From an uncultured virus (IMG/VR IMGVR_UViG_3300025151_000021) (lineage: Duplodnaviria; Heunggongvirae; Uroviricota; Caudoviricetes), in the IMG/VR virus record IMGVR_UViG_3300025151_000021: a DNA stretch of 27,051 bases; one strand, given 5' to 3'. This document shows, piece by piece, positions 2,297 through 27,051 of this stretch (the first letter of the stretch is position 1; each line of letters opens with the position of its first letter). The notes under the pieces are model-generated. The model searched no databases. It was given only the letters and a program-made list of their open reading frames with translations, and had not been told where the DNA came from. The translations under genes were made by a program, and so were the position numbers.

Positions 2297-2639
2297 TCTG
2301 ATTCACCTCTCTTCTACTTAGTATTTCATTTGCCAGTTCTTGCATACAGTCATCACAAGTGCATTTTTTGTCATGTGGTGGCTCTTCAATCATGAAGATT
2401 CTGTCTCCACTGGAATGTTTCTCAATCCTATAACCAATATACTTGTGATTCTCAGGAAACAATTCTGTGACTATTTCCACTTTCTTTGGTTTGCTAACCT
2501 TTGTTATCTCTATCTTTGAGACAACCTCCTCTGCCTTGGGTTTCATCCACTCTCTTAACTTGTTATACGTTTCAACTATTGAGTCTACTCTTCTCTTGTT
2601 GGTCCAAGAAAGACTATTGTAGAAACTTCTCAAAACCAT
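2283..2639 (-). CDS. Hypothetical protein with CxCxxC motif
   Basis: 118-aa ORF overlapping both neighbours; H...CTCDDC. Confidence 0.55.
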   Translation of the reverse strand: MVLRSFYNSLSWTNKRRVDSIVETYNKLREWMKPKAEEVVSKIEITKVSKPKKVEIVTELFPENHKYIGYRIEKHSSGDRIFMIEEPPHDKKCTCDDCMQELANEILSRREVNQNETE

Positions 2640-3511
2640 TCCTCCAACGAACTCTGCTTATTATCAGCAGTTATCTTTCTTGCATCCCAACCCATAGCAC
2701 GATAAATCGGTTCTGCTTTTTTAACCACAGACTCAGCGTAGTGGGACCAGTCAGGGTCATAGTCATAGAAGTCTTCTTCTACAAGTAGTGAGACATATGT
2801 TGCCTTCACATCCATACCAGTGATAGGATTGAAGAAGGTCTTGTTCGACTTAATCTTTAGATACAGATATGTATCATTAATCTCTTCATACCCATTTGCT
2901 TGACTAAACAATACACCGGCAATACCTGAACCAATCGTAGGTCTCTTGCCTTCAAGAGTTGTGAAGTTTCTTGTTGTAGCAGTACAACACGGTGTTTCAA
3001 TCAATGTGAATAGGTTATTCTTTCTAAAGCAGTTCTTACATTCTACCTGAAATCTATTCTCTCTGTATCTACTTCTTTGAAGTATATCAGACAACGGAAT
3101 ATCGCCGTTCATCACAGAATTATACTTGTTATTGAGAAAACCAGTAACTTCTTCCTCAGTTTTTCCCTCAACCCACATATTTAGTACATTCAATTGCACA
3201 TCTTTGGCTAATTGAGTTTGTGAAACCCTCTTCGCAGTGAAACCAGTCATGACAAACTCAGGCTCGTCTAGGAAAACACCATCTTTCCATGTAATTAGTC
3301 CCGCATTCCTGTTTTTTGTTGCTCCAACACCTAAACTCTTGAAGTATTTCTCAAATTCTAGTGTTACAGGATGCTCTTCTAGTCCCATAACGTTAGGAAA
3401 CGACTTTCTAACGTGTTCATTGAGGATTTTTAGTGTTTCTTTAGCAGTTTCGATGCTATCATCTTCAATATCAACGTAAATTGAATCAGTATGCCCGTAA
3501 ACTACCTTCAT
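2630..3511 (-). CDS. polB: Family B DNA polymerase, C-terminal half (motif C, thumb, PIP box)
   Basis: YGHTDSIYV (motif C variant), LEFEK, KNRNAG, and C-terminal PIP box QSSLEEWF. Start placed at ATG 3511 because it follows GGGGG and makes an ATGA overlap with the upstream small ORF; the ORF track gives 3517. Confidence 0.9.
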   Translation of the reverse strand: MKVVYGHTDSIYVDIEDDSIETAKETLKILNEHVRKSFPNVMGLEEHPVTLEFEKYFKSLGVGATKNRNAGLITWKDGVFLDEPEFVMTGFTAKRVSQTQLAKDVQLNVLNMWVEGKTEEEVTGFLNNKYNSVMNGDIPLSDILQRSRYRENRFQVECKNCFRKNNLFTLIETPCCTATTRNFTTLEGKRPTIGSGIAGVLFSQANGYEEINDTYLYLKIKSNKTFFNPITGMDVKATYVSLLVEEDFYDYDPDWSHYAESVVKKAEPIYRAMGWDARKITADNKQSSLEEWF

Positions 3512-3612
3512 ACACATCCCCCAACTAAATTAAACGTATTATTTACGAAAGCAACAGTGCCTGTGACATAAAATGACACTCTAGAGTAGAATATCGTGTC
3601 TTTCCTGTTCAT
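3508..3612 (-). CDS. 34-aa microprotein between the polB halves (MNRKDTIFYSRVSFYVTGTVAFVNNTFNLVGGCV)
   Basis: Manual translation; ATGA overlaps at both ends. Confidence 0.5.
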   Translation of the reverse strand: MNRKDTIFYSRVSFYVTGTVAFVNNTFNLVGGCV

Positions 3613-3815
3613 AATACATTCACATCCTGTAAAAGAGAAAATAAACCATAGAGAAAGATACTAACAAACAATATTCTTGATGTTGTTCTTGAAAAGAGTC
3701 TAGCATCTTTAAAAATCTGACTCCATGCTTGTTTTCTTAACTCTGACTCTGATTTCTTATCTTTCTCCTCTGCCTGTGTTGTATTGAAATCAATATTAGC
3801 ACTTTTTATTGGCAT
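3609..3815 (-). CDS. Small predicted membrane protein between the polB halves
   Basis: 68 aa with a hydrophobic C-terminal stretch ILFVSIFLYGLFSLL; start overlaps the polB-N stop. Confidence 0.6.
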   Translation of the reverse strand: MPIKSANIDFNTTQAEEKDKKSESELRKQAWSQIFKDARLFSRTTSRILFVSIFLYGLFSLLQDVNVL

Positions 3816-5476
3816 TATAGTTCCCTCACTTTGAATGCAGCAGTTCTGATTGCTTCTCTAGCACTAGCAGTAATACTAGCGGCCAAATCAACATCGGCCC
3901 AACCGAATCCCTGATATGCTACAATACCATAGAAAGAAGCCATCAACCTCTTAACAGCAAGTTGGTTGTTGTTCCATTTGACATATTCACTTTTACTTTC
4001 ACTTTCTTTCATTTTTACTTTGTATTCGTTTCTTAGGTTCTTCAACTCTAGAACTGCTTTTGGCAGAAGACCTAGTTTATCTGTCTTGTAATATTTCATT
4101 TCATAGCCGTTTACTTCTGAGAAATCTTTTGGGGTTCTGATATTTACACCAAATTCAGTTGGTGTGTCTGACTTCGTTTCCCAAGAGATATTCCTAGCAA
4201 TCATCATCGATGGATACAGACCTGCGAAGTCAAACGCTGCAACACCCAAATGAAGCCCATTTGTAGCCTCACTGAGAGGGTCGTAGACCATCGCACCATC
4301 ATAGTCCACCCTGTCACCCTTACGTCCTGTAGGAGCCTTCCATGAGGCATTTCTCATGAAGTATATTCCACCCATGTTTGACGCATAGAAACAGGCATCG
4401 AAGGGTGCAATCAGCAAACGCTGTAAAGAGATGATTGCCTCCGTTGTATGGTTCTCGTCGTCTATTCTCTTGATTAACTCTACATCTTTGACAGCATACT
4501 CAAGATAAGTTTCTGTGTCTTCCTGCCATCCTCTACGAAAGAACTCGTTCTTATCAGGGAACTTGCTACTGACTAACTTCTTCTCGCCAAGTACGCTTTC
4601 AGATACATAGTCAAGAGAAAGAGATGGTAGTGTACCACGTTGCGCATCATTCCATTGTCTTTCAAATGCTAGGTCTAGTGGTACGCATATTCTACCTTTG
4701 ATTGGTTGAGCAATCGGAGAGTAATTTTCTACACGTTTAGTTTGCACTATTACACTAGAATCCTTTATGCTCCATTTGACACCATCAACTTCCATCACAG
4801 GAGATAACAATCTAGGGTCTAGGTCATTTGCATGTAGTCTCTCAATCAACTTAGGTAGGTCGAACTTCCAACCAAACCAAGAGATTAGCATATCAGGGTC
4901 TTTCTCAAACAACAATATCAAGAACTTCTCTAGTGTGGTCCTCTCTGTCTCATCAGAATCAGGTTGCCATGTCAAAGTGTGATACTCATCATCATAGTTG
5001 TCATAAACAACAATAGCGGTAATAGCACCATCATGCTCACCACCTTGCATCCACTCCATATCCCAATACCACTTACGCAAGTTATACTCAGGAATAGTAT
5101 CTAGCATATCAACAGCGTATCTGTAATGGTACTGGACATCTGCTTCATATGTTCTATCTCCTCTGTTATGAAAGTAAGACTTTACCTTCTTGGTGTATTT
5201 ACTATGACAAGGAGACCATGTGACTTTGACTAGTTCCTTACCCTCAAGACTCAGGTAATCTCCTTCTTCATAAGATAGGTCCATACGGAAACTCGTATTC
5301 TTGTTCCCCCAATTTTCTTTGAGATAGACAGTCTCACCATCTAGTTTAACTAGCCTTGAGTTCTTCTCAACGAAGAAGTGTGGCTTGAAGTCATTGAAGG
5401 TGATAATCTCCTCCTCTCTCTCACCACCTTCTCTCCAACGAAGAAGTATGCCCTTTTCCGTATTCGTTATTATCAT
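3815..5476 (-). CDS. polB: Family B DNA polymerase, N-terminal half (3'-5' exonuclease, motifs A and B)
   Basis: ExoI WDMEW, ExoII WKFDLPKL, ExoIII YAVKDV, motif A FDFAGLYPSMM, motif B KRLMASFYG. Confidence 0.92.
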   Translation of the reverse strand: MIITNTEKGILLRWREGGEREEEIITFNDFKPHFFVEKNSRLVKLDGETVYLKENWGNKNTSFRMDLSYEEGDYLSLEGKELVKVTWSPCHSKYTKKVKSYFHNRGDRTYEADVQYHYRYAVDMLDTIPEYNLRKWYWDMEWMQGGEHDGAITAIVVYDNYDDEYHTLTWQPDSDETERTTLEKFLILLFEKDPDMLISWFGWKFDLPKLIERLHANDLDPRLLSPVMEVDGVKWSIKDSSVIVQTKRVENYSPIAQPIKGRICVPLDLAFERQWNDAQRGTLPSLSLDYVSESVLGEKKLVSSKFPDKNEFFRRGWQEDTETYLEYAVKDVELIKRIDDENHTTEAIISLQRLLIAPFDACFYASNMGGIYFMRNASWKAPTGRKGDRVDYDGAMVYDPLSEATNGLHLGVAAFDFAGLYPSMMIARNISWETKSDTPTEFGVNIRTPKDFSEVNGYEMKYYKTDKLGLLPKAVLELKNLRNEYKVKMKESESKSEYVKWNNNQLAVKRLMASFYGIVAYQGFGWADVDLAASITASAREAIRTAAFKVREL

Positions 5477-11790: not shown

Positions 11791-13320
11791 TTATATGTTA
11801 CTACAGTATTCACGAATATCATCGATTGTGTTGCAGTCTGCTGGATATTTGTCATCCCTTATTCTCACGATTCTAGGAAACCTAAGACCATATGTTCCAT
11901 CTTGATTCCTAGTGACTGCATCGCAGGTTATCTCTAATACCGTTCTTGGTAATACATGGTATGTGCCATCTGAGTATGAATCTACATTCCTCTTCAGGGA
12001 AACAGATAACCTGTCCATTTCTGTTTCTGTGATTCCTGTCCCAACACTTCCGACCTCCACGAATCCATTATCGCCTATGACTGATACACCATAGGTTGCG
12101 ATGAACCCCGCTCTTTTGCCACTACCATGTTTGCCTGATGTAATCACAACATCTAACTCGATTCTAGGTGGTTTGTACTTGAGAAGGGAACTTGTTCTCT
12201 TTGACTCGTAAACAGCATCTAGGTCTTTTATCATTATACCTTCAAACCCACCGTTGATAGCAACGTTATACGCTGCCTCTATATTGTTATGGGTAAACAT
12301 CATTGCTTGATATTCTTCAGGCACGAACTTCTTCATTATCTCTAAGCGAATGTCATATATTTCATTCAACTGAGAGTTACCTAAGTAAGACATACAATCG
12401 AATACTACAAGTCTAACAGGACATTCAGATATTGCTTTCTGTTTATCCTTTGAGTGAACCCTAGTTCCTAGTTTCTGATGAGCCTCCGGATTACCATGTT
12501 CATCAATAGGATATATCTCACAATCAATCACGAATTTCTCTGTCTCAAACTTGCTAACTATAGAAACAATATCAGGATACTGGTCTGTGACAATCTTTCC
12601 CTTTCGATTGAATATAATTACGTCATTGAATTTGTGTATTTGATATCTGTTACCATCATACTTGGTATCTATGATGTATCTATCAGGTAACTTACTCTTG
12701 TACGGTTTAGCCAACATCGGTTTGATGTACGAACCATGAACATGTGCTGGTGGTTCCTTTCCATTATCTAAGTACATAATCATAGAACTCAATGAATTGG
12801 ACTTTGAATATACAGACACATCAGTATCATACAAAGCAGACATTGCTTTCTCAACTGTGCTGGTGTTGACCCCATTCCTTGGGGTTCTCAGCCAATATCG
12901 TATGAACCATTTCACCTCTAAGGTAGACATGCCCATTATGGCACTCTCAATGTTCTCAAATGCTAGTGAGTTTATCTTAGAGCAATCCAGTTCCAGTAAA
13001 TCCAACAAGCCCTGTAGTGTAATAGTAGAATCAGTTCTCTTTGAATTCAGGAACTCAAGCATACCCTCTCCTAAGTCTAGCCATTTCTCTGCTTCCTCAA
13101 CTATCTCATCCTCAAAAACATTGAACATTGATGCCAACCATTTGATTGCCTTCTTCTCACCAATGTTATTGTTGTCATACTCCAATGATAGTATTCTAAC
13201 CATCGTTGTTCTATCTGCTGTAGATAGACTAGACAATGTAGAAGATAGTATCTGTTTCTTTCTTGTTGGTGTGACGTTCTCTATTGACTCACACATCCGA
13301 CTGAATGTTATCATGCTCAT
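11791..13320 (-). CDS. lig: ATP-dependent DNA ligase
   Basis: KPMLA, motif I KYDGNR, IDCEI, VFDCM, EGIMIK, KYK and LRFPRIVRIRDDK. Confidence 0.95.
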   Translation of the reverse strand: MSMITFSRMCESIENVTPTRKKQILSSTLSSLSTADRTTMVRILSLEYDNNNIGEKKAIKWLASMFNVFEDEIVEEAEKWLDLGEGMLEFLNSKRTDSTITLQGLLDLLELDCSKINSLAFENIESAIMGMSTLEVKWFIRYWLRTPRNGVNTSTVEKAMSALYDTDVSVYSKSNSLSSMIMYLDNGKEPPAHVHGSYIKPMLAKPYKSKLPDRYIIDTKYDGNRYQIHKFNDVIIFNRKGKIVTDQYPDIVSIVSKFETEKFVIDCEIYPIDEHGNPEAHQKLGTRVHSKDKQKAISECPVRLVVFDCMSYLGNSQLNEIYDIRLEIMKKFVPEEYQAMMFTHNNIEAAYNVAINGGFEGIMIKDLDAVYESKRTSSLLKYKPPRIELDVVITSGKHGSGKRAGFIATYGVSVIGDNGFVEVGSVGTGITETEMDRLSVSLKRNVDSYSDGTYHVLPRTVLEITCDAVTRNQDGTYGLRFPRIVRIRDDKYPADCNTIDDIREYCSNI

Positions 13321-15235: not shown

Positions 15236-15345
15236 TCAATCCATAAATCAACATCATAATCCCAACCGCCCTGTCTTTTTCTCCGATACTCTGTATCTAA
15301 GCCATTTTGCATTCGTTTTCTTAGTTCCTTCATCTGTTTGTTCAT
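15163..15345 (-). CDS. Hypothetical protein
   Basis: 60 aa; ATGA overlaps at both ends. Confidence 0.5.
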   Translation of the reverse strand: MNKQMKELRKRMQNGLDTEYRRKRQGGWDYDVDLWIECMESVMWQIDWVLENIEDGEEEE

Positions 15346-15893
15346 TCTTCTTCACCATCCAATACATCTTTAGCGACCTTTGCCCACTCAGGCTCTTCAA
15401 TAGTTTGCTGTTGGTAGATACCGTACTGAACCTTCTTTGCCATACCTGTCTTACATTCATAAGCGATAAACTCGTCGCTACCTAGAACAGTTGCACTCTT
15501 CAGAACTCTCTTCCATGTGTTGATTGTCTTCCAATCAGTACCACTGAAGAAAGCCTGACCGAATGGATGTGTGTGTATCCAACACTTCAATGGTAACTTC
15601 ATACCACTGAGTTGCTCCTCTTGGTCCTTGAAACTAACAAATCCGAATGTACCAACACTAACGAATAGTTGGTCTTCTGCATCTACAATGACTTGTACCT
15701 CTCTAGGAGAGTCAAATGCATTCAGAGACTTGTTCCATATTATAGTATAGAACAATTCTGTATCAGGGTCAGGGAAAGGATATTTGAAATCTATCTCATT
15801 GAACACCGTCTTGATGTCCTCAATCCAATTCTCATCCTTTATCTCTAATCCTTGTATTCCATTATTATCATATTCTGTTTCATCTGTTTTCAT
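15342..15893 (-). CDS. JAB/MPN+ (JAMM) metalloprotease
   Basis: REVQVIVD (catalytic Glu) ... WIHTHPFGQAFFSGTD, the HxH-x7-S-x2-D motif. Confidence 0.88.
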   Translation of the reverse strand: MKTDETEYDNNGIQGLEIKDENWIEDIKTVFNEIDFKYPFPDPDTELFYTIIWNKSLNAFDSPREVQVIVDAEDQLFVSVGTFGFVSFKDQEEQLSGMKLPLKCWIHTHPFGQAFFSGTDWKTINTWKRVLKSATVLGSDEFIAYECKTGMAKKVQYGIYQQQTIEEPEWAKVAKDVLDGEEE

Positions 15894-17023: not shown

Positions 17024-17198
17024 TCACCATTTCCAATACACCAACCGTGTCATTCGACTCTGCTATCCACACATATTGGATTTCATCTTCTTTTCTTTTT
17101 CCCATTTCCCTTAGAGAGTAATAGATTTTCTTGTCTGTATAATGCTCATCAAGAAAACTATCTATCTCTTCAGGATATCCATATAATTTTATTATCAT
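17016..17198 (-). CDS. Hypothetical protein
   Basis: 60-aa coupled ORF. Confidence 0.5.
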   Translation of the reverse strand: MIIKLYGYPEEIDSFLDEHYTDKKIYYSLREMGKRKEDEIQYVWIAESNDTVGVLEMVSG

Positions 17199-17791
17199 AG
17201 GTTCACCATCTTCATATCTATCACATCTTCATTGTCATTGAACCATCTCTGAATCCACTGGACACCCATGCTTGCAATCACCATGTTCATGCAGTTGATG
17301 TCCTTCGCACTTCCATCCCAATCCTGTGCTTGGCAAGAGAAGGAACCCTCTTCACCAATCAACAATGTGTCCATCATCTTGGGGTCAGTCTTGTATGAAA
17401 TCAACGCTGCGTTTCTACCTGTTGAACGCAAATCTAGCCACTTCAACTTAGCATCTGACCCGAACCCCTGCCGATACAACAAACGCCTCACAGCGAGGTT
17501 GTCTGCACAACATACCACCAAGTCATATCCGTGTAACTGCTTGTCAAGTAGAACATTGAATGGTTGGGCATTGATACCTGAGATACACTCAACTTTCTTC
17601 TCACCAATATCCGACTCATCATATGCTTGATATCCAAGATTCTTGGTATCAACAGTGTCAGCGTCGTATACAGTAATATCATACAGATGAGTACCGGGTT
17701 TGTTTGTTCTTTGTGCCTGATTCATTCTCTTCAGGAACTGAGCCAAATAACTTCCAATGCCACCTGCTCCTATTATCATTATCTTCCTCAT
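17195..17791 (-). CDS. ThiF/MoeB/E1-like adenylyltransferase
   Basis: IMIIGAGGIGS, YDADTVDTKNLGYQ, GEKKV, DLVVCCADNLAVRR, candidate catalytic Cys in FSCQ. Start placed at MRKIM (17791); the ORF track gives 17812. Confidence 0.92.
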   Translation of the reverse strand: MRKIMIIGAGGIGSYLAQFLKRMNQAQRTNKPGTHLYDITVYDADTVDTKNLGYQAYDESDIGEKKVECISGINAQPFNVLLDKQLHGYDLVVCCADNLAVRRLLYRQGFGSDAKLKWLDLRSTGRNAALISYKTDPKMMDTLLIGEEGSFSCQAQDWDGSAKDINCMNMVIASMGVQWIQRWFNDNEDVIDMKMVNL

Positions 17792-17792
17792 T

Positions 17793-18074
17793 CTAATCTC
17801 TCCTTCCTGCATGTGGTAGGTCTTGTGGTTTTATCTCCCAAACCTTCCATCCCATTGATTCAAGTTCTACTTGTGAGAATGTTCCCCACTCGTCATGTAA
17901 TCCCTGTACGAAGCCAAACCATAGTGGTGCGCCACCATAGTCCTTCCTTTCCATCTCAGTAGCGAACCAATACCATCCGCTAAAGGACTCCCATCCTTTG
18001 ATTACTTTCTTGTCTCCAATATACAATCCGTCTTCTCTTGTGTTTAATTCATTCATACTCATTTTCATTTTCAT
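17793..18074 (-). CDS. DUF2958-like protein
   Basis: GWYWFATE...FGFVQGL..EWGTFS..ELES pattern. Confidence 0.6.
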   Translation of the reverse strand: MKMKMSMNELNTREDGLYIGDKKVIKGWESFSGWYWFATEMERKDYGGAPLWFGFVQGLHDEWGTFSQVELESMGWKVWEIKPQDLPHAGRRD

Positions 18075-22630: not shown

Positions 22631-22831
22631 CTAACACCCACCGACTACGGCAGGTATTAGTTCTACTTCATTCACAGTGTCCCAACTGACACCAGCGATA
22701 TCTTGTCTAATGACCATCTCACCATCAACAAACACCCAATGTGTAGGGTGGTCATTGATTTGCTCAATGGCTTGTTCGCTGTTCACTATCAGTTCTGTGT
22801 GTCCTGTTTCATTTTGTATTATCATTTTCAT
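22631..22831 (-). CDS. Ubiquitin-like beta-grasp protein (ThiS/MoaD/SAMP-like) ending GG-C
   Basis: 66 aa; VFVDGEMV...EVELIPAVVGGC-stop. Confidence 0.82.
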   Translation of the reverse strand: MKMIIQNETGHTELIVNSEQAIEQINDHPTHWVFVDGEMVIRQDIAGVSWDTVNEVELIPAVVGGC

Positions 22832-25290: not shown

Positions 25291-25880
25291 AGACCCATCT
25301 CCTTCATCACATCACTCAACCTACTTGCTATCGATTCATTGAAATCATCGACCTCAAAGGACTTCTTCAGGTAGTGGTCCTTCGGCCACCAATCAGGCTC
25401 TTGCGTCTTCCAAGAAGCGAGCCTCCATTTGCCCTCCATGTAGTAGTGCCTGTAAGAACGAATAGCAAAATCAAACGCATCCTCTGATGGCATTCTCTCT
25501 ACTCTATACCTATCTGACATGGCGATACCAAAAGGTGTCAAACCAGTTCCGGGTAAGATATCCTCGACTTGGTTGAAGACATTCGCATACTCCTCAAGCG
25601 TCTCCTCGACCTTGTGCTTGCGACCATACCTAGTGGTATACTCCTTGCACAAGAAGTAGCAATGCTTTCTCAACCACTGGTAGTTCTGTGAAGTCTGCCT
25701 AGCCCAAATAGTACAAGGGTGATTCAACATCACAGGCTTGTAAGGTGCATCCTCGATACCAAGATGAGTAGCGATAGTTGACATCATCTGCATACTCTCA
25801 GTTGGCATCTTCACAACATGCTGGTCCAACATCATCTGTGCTGATGTCTTGGGACTCATATCTAATGCGAAAATATTCAT
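25287..25880 (-). CDS. Pyrimidine-dimer DNA glycosylase (DenV/endonuclease V-like family)
   Basis: MNIFALD...HVVKMPTESMQM...NHPCTIWARQT...EYTTRYGRKH...YRHYY. Confidence 0.85.
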   Translation of the reverse strand: MNIFALDMSPKTSAQMMLDQHVVKMPTESMQMMSTIATHLGIEDAPYKPVMLNHPCTIWARQTSQNYQWLRKHCYFLCKEYTTRYGRKHKVEETLEEYANVFNQVEDILPGTGLTPFGIAMSDRYRVERMPSEDAFDFAIRSYRHYYMEGKWRLASWKTQEPDWWPKDHYLKKSFEVDDFNESIASRLSDVMKEMGL

Positions 25881-26305
25881 TCTTCCTCACCCCTGAAACT
25901 TGTTCTTAGTCTCTTAACCACAATGGCATCGACTCTCCGCTTGAAGAAGTCACTTCTCATTTCTTCTGTCAAGACTGCTCTCATAACTTTCTTGTTAGAG
26001 GAGATGTTATCTATTATCTTCTCAAGTCTGTTAACCTTGTTTTCCAAATCTATGATTCTCTGTCTCTCTTGGGGTTCCATATTCATCTTGTGCATTACCC
26101 ATTGTCGCATACTGTCATTGTTGCCACCTTGAGCATACGCATTGGTGCTTCTCACCAAAGGCGTGTGGCCTTCCAAGTGGCTCTTCCTGTGGTTATTGCC
26201 TATGTGCATTTCACAATATTTCTGCTGACTGTTACGACTACGATATCTCACATTGCACTTATGCCCGTCTTCCAATATATATTCGCATCTTCTTATCATT
26301 TTCAT
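25877..26305 (-). CDS. Hypothetical protein with CCCH-like N-terminus and coiled coil
   Basis: CEY...KCN...YCEMH; SD GGAGGA upstream. Confidence 0.6.
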   Translation of the reverse strand: MKMIRRCEYILEDGHKCNVRYRSRNSQQKYCEMHIGNNHRKSHLEGHTPLVRSTNAYAQGGNNDSMRQWVMHKMNMEPQERQRIIDLENKVNRLEKIIDNISSNKKVMRAVLTEEMRSDFFKRRVDAIVVKRLRTSFRGEEE

Positions 26306-26339
26306 TCTTATTCCTCCTGTTGACTAATTGATTGTAATT

Positions 26340-26434
26340 GCAGAGAAAGGTAGGGAGAATAGCACTCCCCGTACTAGGACGGCGAAATCCTCGGAAGTAA
26401 GAATTTACCTTTTTTATTTCGTACAAAACTCTGC
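26340..26434. ncRNA. Structured unit 1 of a putative ncRNA array
   Basis: GCAGAG/CTCTGC outer stem, AAAGGTA/TACCTTT inner stem, inner hairpins GGGAG/CTCCC and AGGA/TCCT. Confidence 0.55.
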
Positions 26435-26484
26435 TCGCTATGCCATGCAACGTAGCCATACGCTTTTGACATTTTGAGTGTGAT

Positions 26485-26563
26485 TAGTAGGAAAATGCAA
26501 TGCTGAGATGAGATGAAGCATCACTGCTATTGATTCTGCATTTTTACCACAGTAAACCTACTG
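26485..26563. ncRNA. Structured unit 2 of a putative ncRNA array
   Basis: AGTAGG/CCTACT outer stem, AAAATGCA/TGCATTTT inner stem, ATGCT/AGCAT hairpin. Confidence 0.55.
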
Positions 26564-26575
26564 TTTGAGTGTGAT

Positions 26576-26820
26576 GAGGGAAAGGATAGGTACTATGCCC
26601 ATCATGCGGAGTAGGGAACTGCAACCGGGAAAGTTGCCTCGATGTTACTTACGACCCCTGTTAACCTGCTTCATATTTTATACCGGGAAGCCGCTACTTA
26701 CGTTCCTTGTAAGTGCGAACAAGTTCGGATGGATTTGACACCCCTCTTCTCACGAATGAGTAAGGCGAACCATCGTTAGTCTGCTCCTATATCTTCAATC
26801 CTTATTATTACTAAACCCTC
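26576..26820. ncRNA. Structured unit 3 (long) of a putative ncRNA array
   Basis: GAGGG/CCCTC outer stem, AAGGAT/ATCCTT inner stem, internal hairpins GCAAC/GTTGC, ACTTAC/GTAAGT and GATGG/CCATC. Confidence 0.5.
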
Positions 26821-26946
26821 TATCCCACGACTCGACACTTCATGTTCTTGCTGAAACAATCGCTAAACCATTTCAACTCAAAGGTGAAGGCTAATCCACC
26901 TGAACATTCTTTGTCTCCCTGAGCCATATGTGAGTGTGATATTTGT

Positions 26947-27051
26947 TTACTTCTTTCTCCTGTAAACTAGGAGTAGAGTCAGATAACCAATCAAGTCCTT
27001 GATGATGTCGTCATCTGATTCTAGTGAGTCATTACCGAGAACAAGCCTGTT
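26947..27051 (-). CDS. C-terminal fragment of a DUF1599/Nmad1-like (nucleotide-modification associated) protein
   Basis: Manual translation NRLVLGNDSLESDDDIIKDLIGYLTLLLVYRRKK-stop; the DLIGY motif is typical of this family. Confidence 0.5.
   Translation of the reverse strand, partial: NRLVLGNDSLESDDDIIKDLIGYLTLLLVYRRKK

Follow-up and report, generated by a model that had tools for sequence, protein, structure and literature searches.

A conserved, uncatalogued RNA family on a reusable knotted scaffold in a virus genome of the group B magrovirus type

The U RNAs of Herpesvirus saimiri and the Y RNAs of bacteria and phages are sets of several RNAs with common ends and different effector parts, and stable RNAs are found in phage tRNA clusters. 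In the catalytic core of RNase P RNA the strands follow the order P1-P2-P4-insert-P2'-P19-P4'-P1'. Magroviruses infect archaea that are among the most abundant in the surface ocean. Those of group B, viruses of marine group II archaea, are described in PMC5434244 as carrying a split DNA polymerase B. According to PMC6565675, the P4 helix of RNase P is a pseudoknot, with the P19 stem between P2 and P4 and a conserved U in P4. Triple helices act as stability elements in viruses (PMC7583470, section 3.4).

The window analyzed here (the whole stretch of 27,051 nt) corresponds to G000:C1:56637-83687 of an 84-kb linear virus record, rated 86% complete by CheckV. All genes in the window lie on the minus strand; among them are those for a two-piece DNA polymerase B, a sliding clamp, a clamp loader, a ligase and a class II ribonucleotide reductase. 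The portal, capsid and tail-tube genes are on the plus strand, outside the window. Because this gene set, the split polymerase above all, matches that given for group B magroviruses in PMC5434244, the genome was assigned to that type, and we infer that the host belongs to marine group II archaea. The RNA block lies near the upstream end of the minus-strand gene module, between a 113-aa and a 142-aa gene (Table 1). The original prediction, which was made from the sequence of this locus, described it as the only large non-coding block of a tightly packed genome, and the next largest intergenic gap in the window is indeed 104 nt.

Other features of this genome were recorded in passing. Short purine-rich motifs are repeated upstream of the 113-aa gene (G000:C1:83950-84100, equivalent to L001:2950-3100) and also occur in the related loci L002-L005; they are possibly an early promoter or an origin. 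A 380-aa early protein matched only unnamed viral clusters in an ESM Atlas search. Two genes with ATP-dependent ligase domains are present in one genome (L242:13710-16289 and window 11791-13320), one of them encoding 860 aa and lying in the structural module. A ThiF-family gene, a small protein ending in GGC and an HxH-motif protein are encoded on the minus strand at window 15342-15893, 17195-17812 and 22631-22831, the latter two without a Pfam match. Together these three suggest a ubiquitin-like system.

The block had been described as an array of three units, each closed by an outer and an inner stem. All six named stem pairs are present where they had been placed, and units 1 and 3 have the proposed lengths of 95 and 245 nt, while unit 2 measures 77 nt between its named stems and not 79. 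The 10-nt motif assigned once to each unit was found at 26329, 26475 and 26566. A fourth copy, at 26931, had been overlooked, as had the leader hairpin module upstream of unit 3. These four copies are the sole plus-strand matches to the motif in the 84-kb genome, which holds one further match on the minus strand.

Table 1. Coordinates of the RNA array and of neighboring or diagnostic genes in the window.
Feature	Position	Strand	Remarks
DNA polymerase B in two ORFs	3815-5476 and 2630-3517	-	As reported for group B magroviruses (PMC5434244)
142-aa gene, family not known, downstream of array	25877..26317	-	Ribosome-binding site 26313-17
3' tail motif, unit 1	26329..26338	-	Motif matching
Unit 1, 95 nt	26340..26434	-	P1 26429-34/26340-45; UUU 26426-28
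Unit 1 inner parts	Pseudoknot 26421-25/26370-74; P2 26406-12/26346-52; last hairpin 26365-69/26353-57	-	
Linker hairpin between units 2 and 1	26436..26474	-	Structure read by eye
3' tail/linker motif, unit 2	26475..26484	-	Motif matching
Unit 2, 77 nt	26486..26562	-	P1 26557-62/26486-91; pseudoknot 26549-54/26522-27
Unit 2 inner parts	P2 26538-43/26493-98; last hairpin 26517-21/26500-04	-	Loop of last hairpin C/U-rich
3' tail/linker motif, unit 3	26566..26575	-	Candidate processing site
Unit 3, 245 nt, long conserved RNA	26576..26820	-	P1 26816-20/26576-80; UUU 26813-15; P2 26798-803/26582-87
Unit 3 inner parts	Conserved stretches 26790-95, 26590-99; palindromic hairpin loop 26684-87	-	Multi-helix insert
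Leader hairpin module	26824..26934	-	Closing stem 26930-34 with 26824-28; conserved apical loop 26861-66
Fourth 10-nt motif copy	26931..26940	-	Just behind stop codon of upstream gene; overlaps 5' strand of leader stem
113-aa gene, 3' part, upstream of array	26947..27051	-	phrog_1485, function not known

Taken alone, the window sequence does not fold better than shuffled controls, an outcome named beforehand as speaking against the original prediction. With pseudoknots ignored, the z-score of the whole block is -0.05 on the plus strand and 0.61 on the minus strand, that of unit 3 is 0.06, and those of units 1 and 2 range from -0.8 to -1.9. Among 42 hand-picked short units (of 96) the mean was -1.26, with 11 below -2. 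Since single-sequence folding is unremarkable, the case for structure rests on relatives.

Related loci were collected through the flanking proteins. A descriptor of the shared ends gave 168 matches on the gene strand and eight on the other in 617,866 nt from 100 sources, some of which are the same contig fetched twice and others of which stop short of the array; 67 of the 100 had at least one match, with one to six units per source. Because the descriptor selects on pairing, a second test began from the 5' end motif alone, and the partner was then sought. At least 11 Watson-Crick pairs of P1 plus P2 lay downstream of 85 of the 110 distinct motifs (gene strand, related loci), compared with 0/550 shuffles, 1/110 upstream regions and 0/20 opposite-strand motifs. 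This test skipped motifs less than 400 nt from a locus end, and unit 3 of the window scored only 7 in the script's register. Three of the 168 descriptor matches (a coding match in the window, L219:4967 and L237:265) were removed as spurious or duplicate before clustering, which yielded 129 distinct units, 33 long and 96 short, in 46 insert clusters. Homologues with compensatory changes were found in the unit-3 group-b and unit-1-slot alignments described below. The proposal of a family of viral non-coding RNAs with a common scaffold and interchangeable inserts is supported by the 129 units, their 46 insert clusters and the variable number of units. We conclude that the structured RNA is almost certainly real, and that it represents a conserved, uncatalogued RNA family on a reusable knotted scaffold.

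The number of units differs even among close relatives, in which the ends of unit 1 are kept around different inserts and an extra element is present in some. The insert of unit 1 in the window itself resembles none in the relatives examined. The linker hairpin between units 2 and 1 also varies, and another structured element takes its place in some relatives. In two records rated 100% complete, 3/5 and 1/1 motif matches fall within the array. Genes for tRNAs lie between units in some relatives. In all, 12 of 44 loci scanned contained 19 tRNA genes. Four or five units are interleaved with tRNA-Lys(UUU) and tRNA-Leu(UAA) at L038:4922-5588, L077:4943-5602 and L219:2647-3331, and the units of these three arrays are mostly without the tail motif.

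A conserved, stem-closed element of about 100 nt that has no UUU scaffold occurs between units on the gene strand of four loci (L003:3680-3780, L029:4774-4880, L179:293-400 and L234:880-1000), and the L234 copy gave no Rfam match. Its L003 copy is core-like for a hammerhead, an identification rejected by eye as the core is not kept and the stems fail to close. A second structured non-coding block, apart from the single scaffold unit of these viruses, is found at L031:5590-5880 and L032:5750-6050. Pattern scans of viral contigs returned chance matches, save four relatives already known, and the scaffold pattern had no match in GTDB genomes or GenBank phages. One such chance match, in an unrelated phage (L008, L010 and L011, about 800-1300), is preceded upstream by a long stretch that is apparently non-coding and contains numerous short inverted repeats. 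The unit-1-slot model, a narrow one that missed window units 2 and 3, gave no match below E 0.4 in 91 loci, mostly of unrelated phages, and no credible copy outside the arrays in five virus records.

The original prediction took the plus strand as the RNA. G-U pairs in unit 2 at first seemed to favor that reading. Across six alignments with pairs predicted on both strands, G-U and A-C pair types on the gene strand number 31 versus 11 (p=0.003), the types not being independent events. Five of the six alignments fold better on the gene strand and one slightly better on the other, and for one the pair types are even at 2:2. The 19 tRNA genes of the related loci all lie on the gene strand. The excess of G-U pairs, the better folding and the tRNA orientation therefore point to the minus strand as the RNA, an assignment in which we have high confidence, and on the pair counts and tRNA strand we reject the plus-strand reading.

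With the strand corrected, the sequence TGA(G/T)TGT(G/A)AT is no longer the head of each unit; it becomes a 3' tail or linker, and the one-sided bulge that had been placed before the outer-stem partner lies on the 5' side. Of 95 distinct tails, 52 have this motif at most 20 nt from P1', usually at a distance of 3-6 nt, as compared with 50/1459 background 20-mers and 17/95 upstream flanks; it is absent from the remaining 43. The motif was also considered as a transcription start, and was rejected as such since no conserved TATA-like box is visible by eye upstream.

On the minus strand, each unit reads P1, UUU, a pseudoknot strand, UAAA, P2 (which starts with AA), the insert, the pseudoknot partner, the last hairpin, P2' (which ends in UU) and P1'. 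The supposed one-sided bulge of the short units pairs with the strand before the last hairpin and is half of a pseudoknot; a three-way junction whose bulge would form a small side hairpin was considered as an alternative and gave way to this pairing. In 39 hand-picked short units (of 96), the complementarity of the bases after UUU to their own insert was 13.2 versus 11.3, a value reached in 0/20,000 permutations. The anchored pseudoknot plus hairpin was present in 32 of these 39 (null mean 18.1, maximum 29 in 50,000) and absent from seven, and 673/1482 non-own pairs also passed this anchored test. Several pair types are seen at each pseudoknot position in the short units. In a plain MAFFT alignment of 21 unit-1-slot sequences, 5/6 pseudoknot pairs show changes in both partners, and 90% of cells are paired. 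Window units 1 and 2 both have the pseudoknot, which abuts the last hairpin with no gap; in long units, window unit 3 included, it is short, at 3-5 bp, and inconsistent. As predicted pairings, P1, P2 and the last hairpin, plus the pseudoknot in short units, are shown by this comparison of sequences, and the pseudoknot is very likely to be present in the short units.

The order of the paired strands mirrors the RNase P core order given above, and the scaffold could accordingly be imagined as catalytic, either as a self-cleaving ribozyme that processes the array or as a stripped relative of the RNase P catalytic domain, with the long unit acting on tRNA-like substrates. A compact knot with invariant bases, the tRNA neighbors, and the extra conserved single strands that the long unit has at both P2 junctions would fit such a role. 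We nevertheless consider it improbable, as no RNase P match was obtained at the array down to E 10 and a cut inside a P1-closed unit would leave the units joined. In addition, P2 is variable and was found by the descriptor as an unbroken helix, in contrast to the universally conserved U in RNase P P4 (PMC6565675).

P2 and the last hairpin could also be viewed as an acceptor and a T arm, by which short units would mimic tRNA and serve as decoys for tRNA-cutting defense nucleases or as substrates of RNase P/Z. Unit 1 of the window has the corresponding dimensions (7+5 bp and a 7-nt loop), several relatives are alike, and tRNA genes are nearby. Across the short units, however, the last hairpin ranges from 3 to 9 bp and its loops from 3 to 66 nt, the loops are not T-loops by eye, and neither ARAGORN nor Rfam finds a tRNA within units. 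We regard tRNA mimicry as very unlikely.

The 5' U-run, of 3-6 residues, is present in 39/39 short units, the first two bases of P2 are A in 39/39, and a 3' U-run adjoins P1' in most units. A fourth U accompanies a third A-U pair in the hand-picked short units (9/6/3/13, p=0.029, 31 lineages; p=0.02 for 62 heads), a test that uses related sequences; the long units display no such link (p=1, n=20). The pseudoknot helix starts from the distal end of P2, which obliges the UUU to run the length of P2, parallel with the A-rich strand; pyrimidine-motif triples in pseudoknots are arranged in the same way (PMC7583470). In the resulting model the UUU probably forms two or three U·A-U triples on P2, and the UAAA linker would pack against a helix. 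A bolder and, in our judgment, doubtful interpretation is that the scaffold constitutes a new and autonomous fold: a minimal chassis made of a pseudoknot and a triple helix, connected in an RNase P-like way, that acts as a plug-in platform for dozens of RNA effectors, with a catalytic or dimerizing long unit. If true, it would constitute a new class of archaeal-virus RNA machinery, beyond a stability cap.

The long unit (unit 3 type; 242-345 nt) is the most conserved member and reaches distant relatives. In the unit-3 group-b alignment of 16 sequences, 27/55 pairs change on both sides, a number reached by 0/500 shuffles and compared with at most eight in slid registers; the structure was predicted from the same alignment that was tested. 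Whole domains are gained or absent among unit-3 homologues. The palindromic hairpin loop of unit 3 has only two states in 28 contexts (15 and 13), both of them 4-nt palindromes, and possibly mediates a kissing-loop dimer. Most of 36 sources show the leader hairpin on the upstream side of the long unit. Its apical loop is kept in most relatives though the stem changes, and is possibly a protein or nuclease signal.

Transcripts of the array had been predicted, and RNA contigs cover unit 3 in 4/4 metatranscriptome runs from four studies, lying over parts of 26580-26903 and bridging the leader and unit 3. These are assembled contigs, mostly of related strains at an 85% likeness cut-off, that are silent on strand, ends and level and could include DNA carry-over. 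Altogether, 14 RNA runs from five studies contain a small share of the region. The four runs gave no contigs over units 1 and 2, which is uninformative at 85% likeness. Missing cover over the coding genes was not used because relatives are mostly 67-82% identical there, below the cut-off, L005 being exceptional in reaching 90% identity over 714 nt. RNA contigs run from the leader straight into unit 3, and so the junction between them is not fully cut. The stop of the X1 contig at 26580, beside P1', was considered as an RNA end and dismissed as too weak, coming from a single run.

These RNA contigs from four studies, along with the covariation of the pseudoknot and of multi-helix inserts, speak against a role at the DNA level, in which the stems, formed in single-stranded DNA, would be signals for recombination or replication and their transcription would be incidental. 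Such signals would be in keeping with inserts and unit numbers that shift among close relatives, and DNA hairpins tolerate G-T too, yet we find this the least credible of the readings considered.

The reading that we consider best, at about an even chance and by analogy, is that the fold is an end-clamping stability scaffold for interchangeable viral RNAs. The block would be a small operon of non-coding RNAs in the magrovirus early region, on the same strand as the flanking genes, with each unit formed by one reusable fold enclosing a different insert. The single-stranded tail motifs would be the cleavage sites of a long early transcript, together with the tRNA ends in those arrays that have tRNAs. 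Both ends of each RNA would be locked by the fold and shielded from host exonucleases, in the manner of the triple-helix stability elements of eukaryotic viruses, and the different inserts would accumulate as separate RNAs. Most likely, we propose, the inserts would decoy RNA-binding factors or translation factors of the host. The C/U-rich loop of unit 2 could pair with purine-rich ribosome-binding sites. Guides and ribozymes had been offered as other kinds of insert. The longest complement to the virus's own genome is 11-12 nt, a chance length, and no ribozyme insert is supported, with no Rfam ribozyme match. In order of probability, the stability scaffold is followed by a protein dock, cis-acting mRNA elements, catalysis, tRNA mimicry and a DNA-level role.

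Y RNAs and Sm-bound viral U RNAs are the models for a protein dock, whereby the fold chiefly binds one host or viral protein, each unit is an RNP with a different effector domain, and stability is secondary. Few invariant junction bases and freely varying stems suit a shape recognized by protein, and the inserts are exchanged. The virus genes searched contain no candidate for the common binding protein of the original prediction: five virus records (three of them at least 90% complete) have no TROVE/Ro60, LSM (Sm-like) or reverse transcriptase gene, and 80 Pfam scans of the genome's ORFs, from which a few very long ORFs were left out, found no RNA-binding family. A protein dock is unlikely in our estimate, if the first alternative to be kept in mind.

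Somewhat less probable still is that the units are not free RNAs but work in cis within early mRNAs, as terminators, decay blocks or 5' stabilizers, and so are comparable to the promoter/stem-loop cassettes of T4-type phages. A distance of 23 nt separates the end of unit 1 from a ribosome-binding site, and lone units occur away from the main array in L220, L221, L223, L234 and L235; the phage PeSL cassettes, moreover, shuffle modules through recombination (PMC2839356). Against this role stand the tandem arrays, in which up to six units and tRNAs follow one another without an intervening ORF, the large, conserved inserts and the lack, by eye, of a conserved TATA-like box before the motif.

Whichever role applies, a reused fold around unrelated inserts is a compact, testable structure, and unit 2, at 77 nt, can be made in vitro. 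If the scaffold is stabilizing, it would extend triple-helix stability elements to archaeal viruses and provide a natural portable scaffold. The inserts would supply a list of candidate RNA effectors that the virus may direct at an uncultured host.

Comparison with catalogued RNAs agrees with the original prediction, which could not match the array to a known family: the window has no Rfam 15 match at the gathering cut-off. In seven related loci the only matches above cut-off were tRNAs, and searches to E 10 gave sub-threshold matches only. By sequence and model searches, then, the fold matches no catalogued RNA family. The manA RNA model had a match at E 10 in 0/5 records. Box H/ACA RNAs are not indicated, with ACA in only 45/95 tails and an unpaired strand that is one-sided and pairs internally; a fixed acceptor plus T arm with T-loop, as in a tRNA or tRNA-like RNA, is missing from the units. 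Term searches of three magrovirus papers returned no non-coding RNAs besides tRNAs. The scaffold RNA was likewise not found by term searches of the main texts of PMC11706807, PMC10160649, PMC5434244, PMC8651126, PMC10690425, PMC5737381, PMC13085918, PMC6565675 and PMC5069720, subscription literature being outside this scope, and three contig ids, a motif and the name of the host order were without a match in six supplement files of PMC10690425.

Among individual families, the only suggestive weak match was RT-14 (RF02921; PMC5737381), which scores 25.2 bits on the relative L082 in an alignment that spans the leader hairpin together with the 5' scaffold motif. The cut-off is 48.1 bits, 0/5 records exceed it, and the genome of the window has no match at E 10. 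The RT-14 model is without the 3' half of the scaffold, and the PF00078 reverse transcriptase of its context is found in 0/5 records. The two may be distantly related. Tan1, a 229-nt abundant RNA of marine group II archaea, is close to unit 3 in length and shares the host group, an origin in seawater RNA and a function that is not known (PMC5069720). Unlike the units, it is purine-rich with GAAA loops and has no scaffold motif, as compared by eye with the sequence in PMC5069720. The PeSL cassettes of T4-type phages resemble the array in their repeated stem-loops, variable early region and modular exchange (PMC2839356). However, PeSLs are described there as near-identical promoter-terminator units between genes, whereas the array units vary in sequence, surround structured inserts and lack a promoter motif.

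The units are like the Herpesvirus saimiri U RNAs and the Y RNAs in having shared ends, differing effector parts and a tRNA gene neighborhood. They differ from both in their fold, with no Sm or Ro60 gene found and no Rfam match; for Y RNA in particular, TROVE is absent from the five virus records. The short units share with RNase P RNA (RF00373 and relatives) the strand order of the core pseudoknot, a likeness of order and not of compared three-dimensional structures. They are unlike it in lacking a covariance-model match, a conserved P4 sequence with inserted U, and a P3, and in being as short as 68 nt; CR-I, CR-IV, CR-V and the conserved U of P4 are absent, with no model match at the array.

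The closest parallel is with the ENE of KSHV PAN RNA and MALAT1, in which, as in the units, a closing stem is topped by two U-rich strands that flank an A tract (PMC7583470). Protection from decay is proposed for ENE-type elements in the same source, and viruses use them (PMC7583470). The units depart from the ENE in having an internal A tract in place of one supplied by the 3' tail, pairing at both ends of the RNA, an enclosed pseudoknot and variable insert, and a host that is presumably archaeal; only two or three triples are possible, as against five in KSHV PAN (PMC7583470). Because the A tract is internal the units are not ENE-type elements, yet it is these elements that they would most resemble in the way they work.
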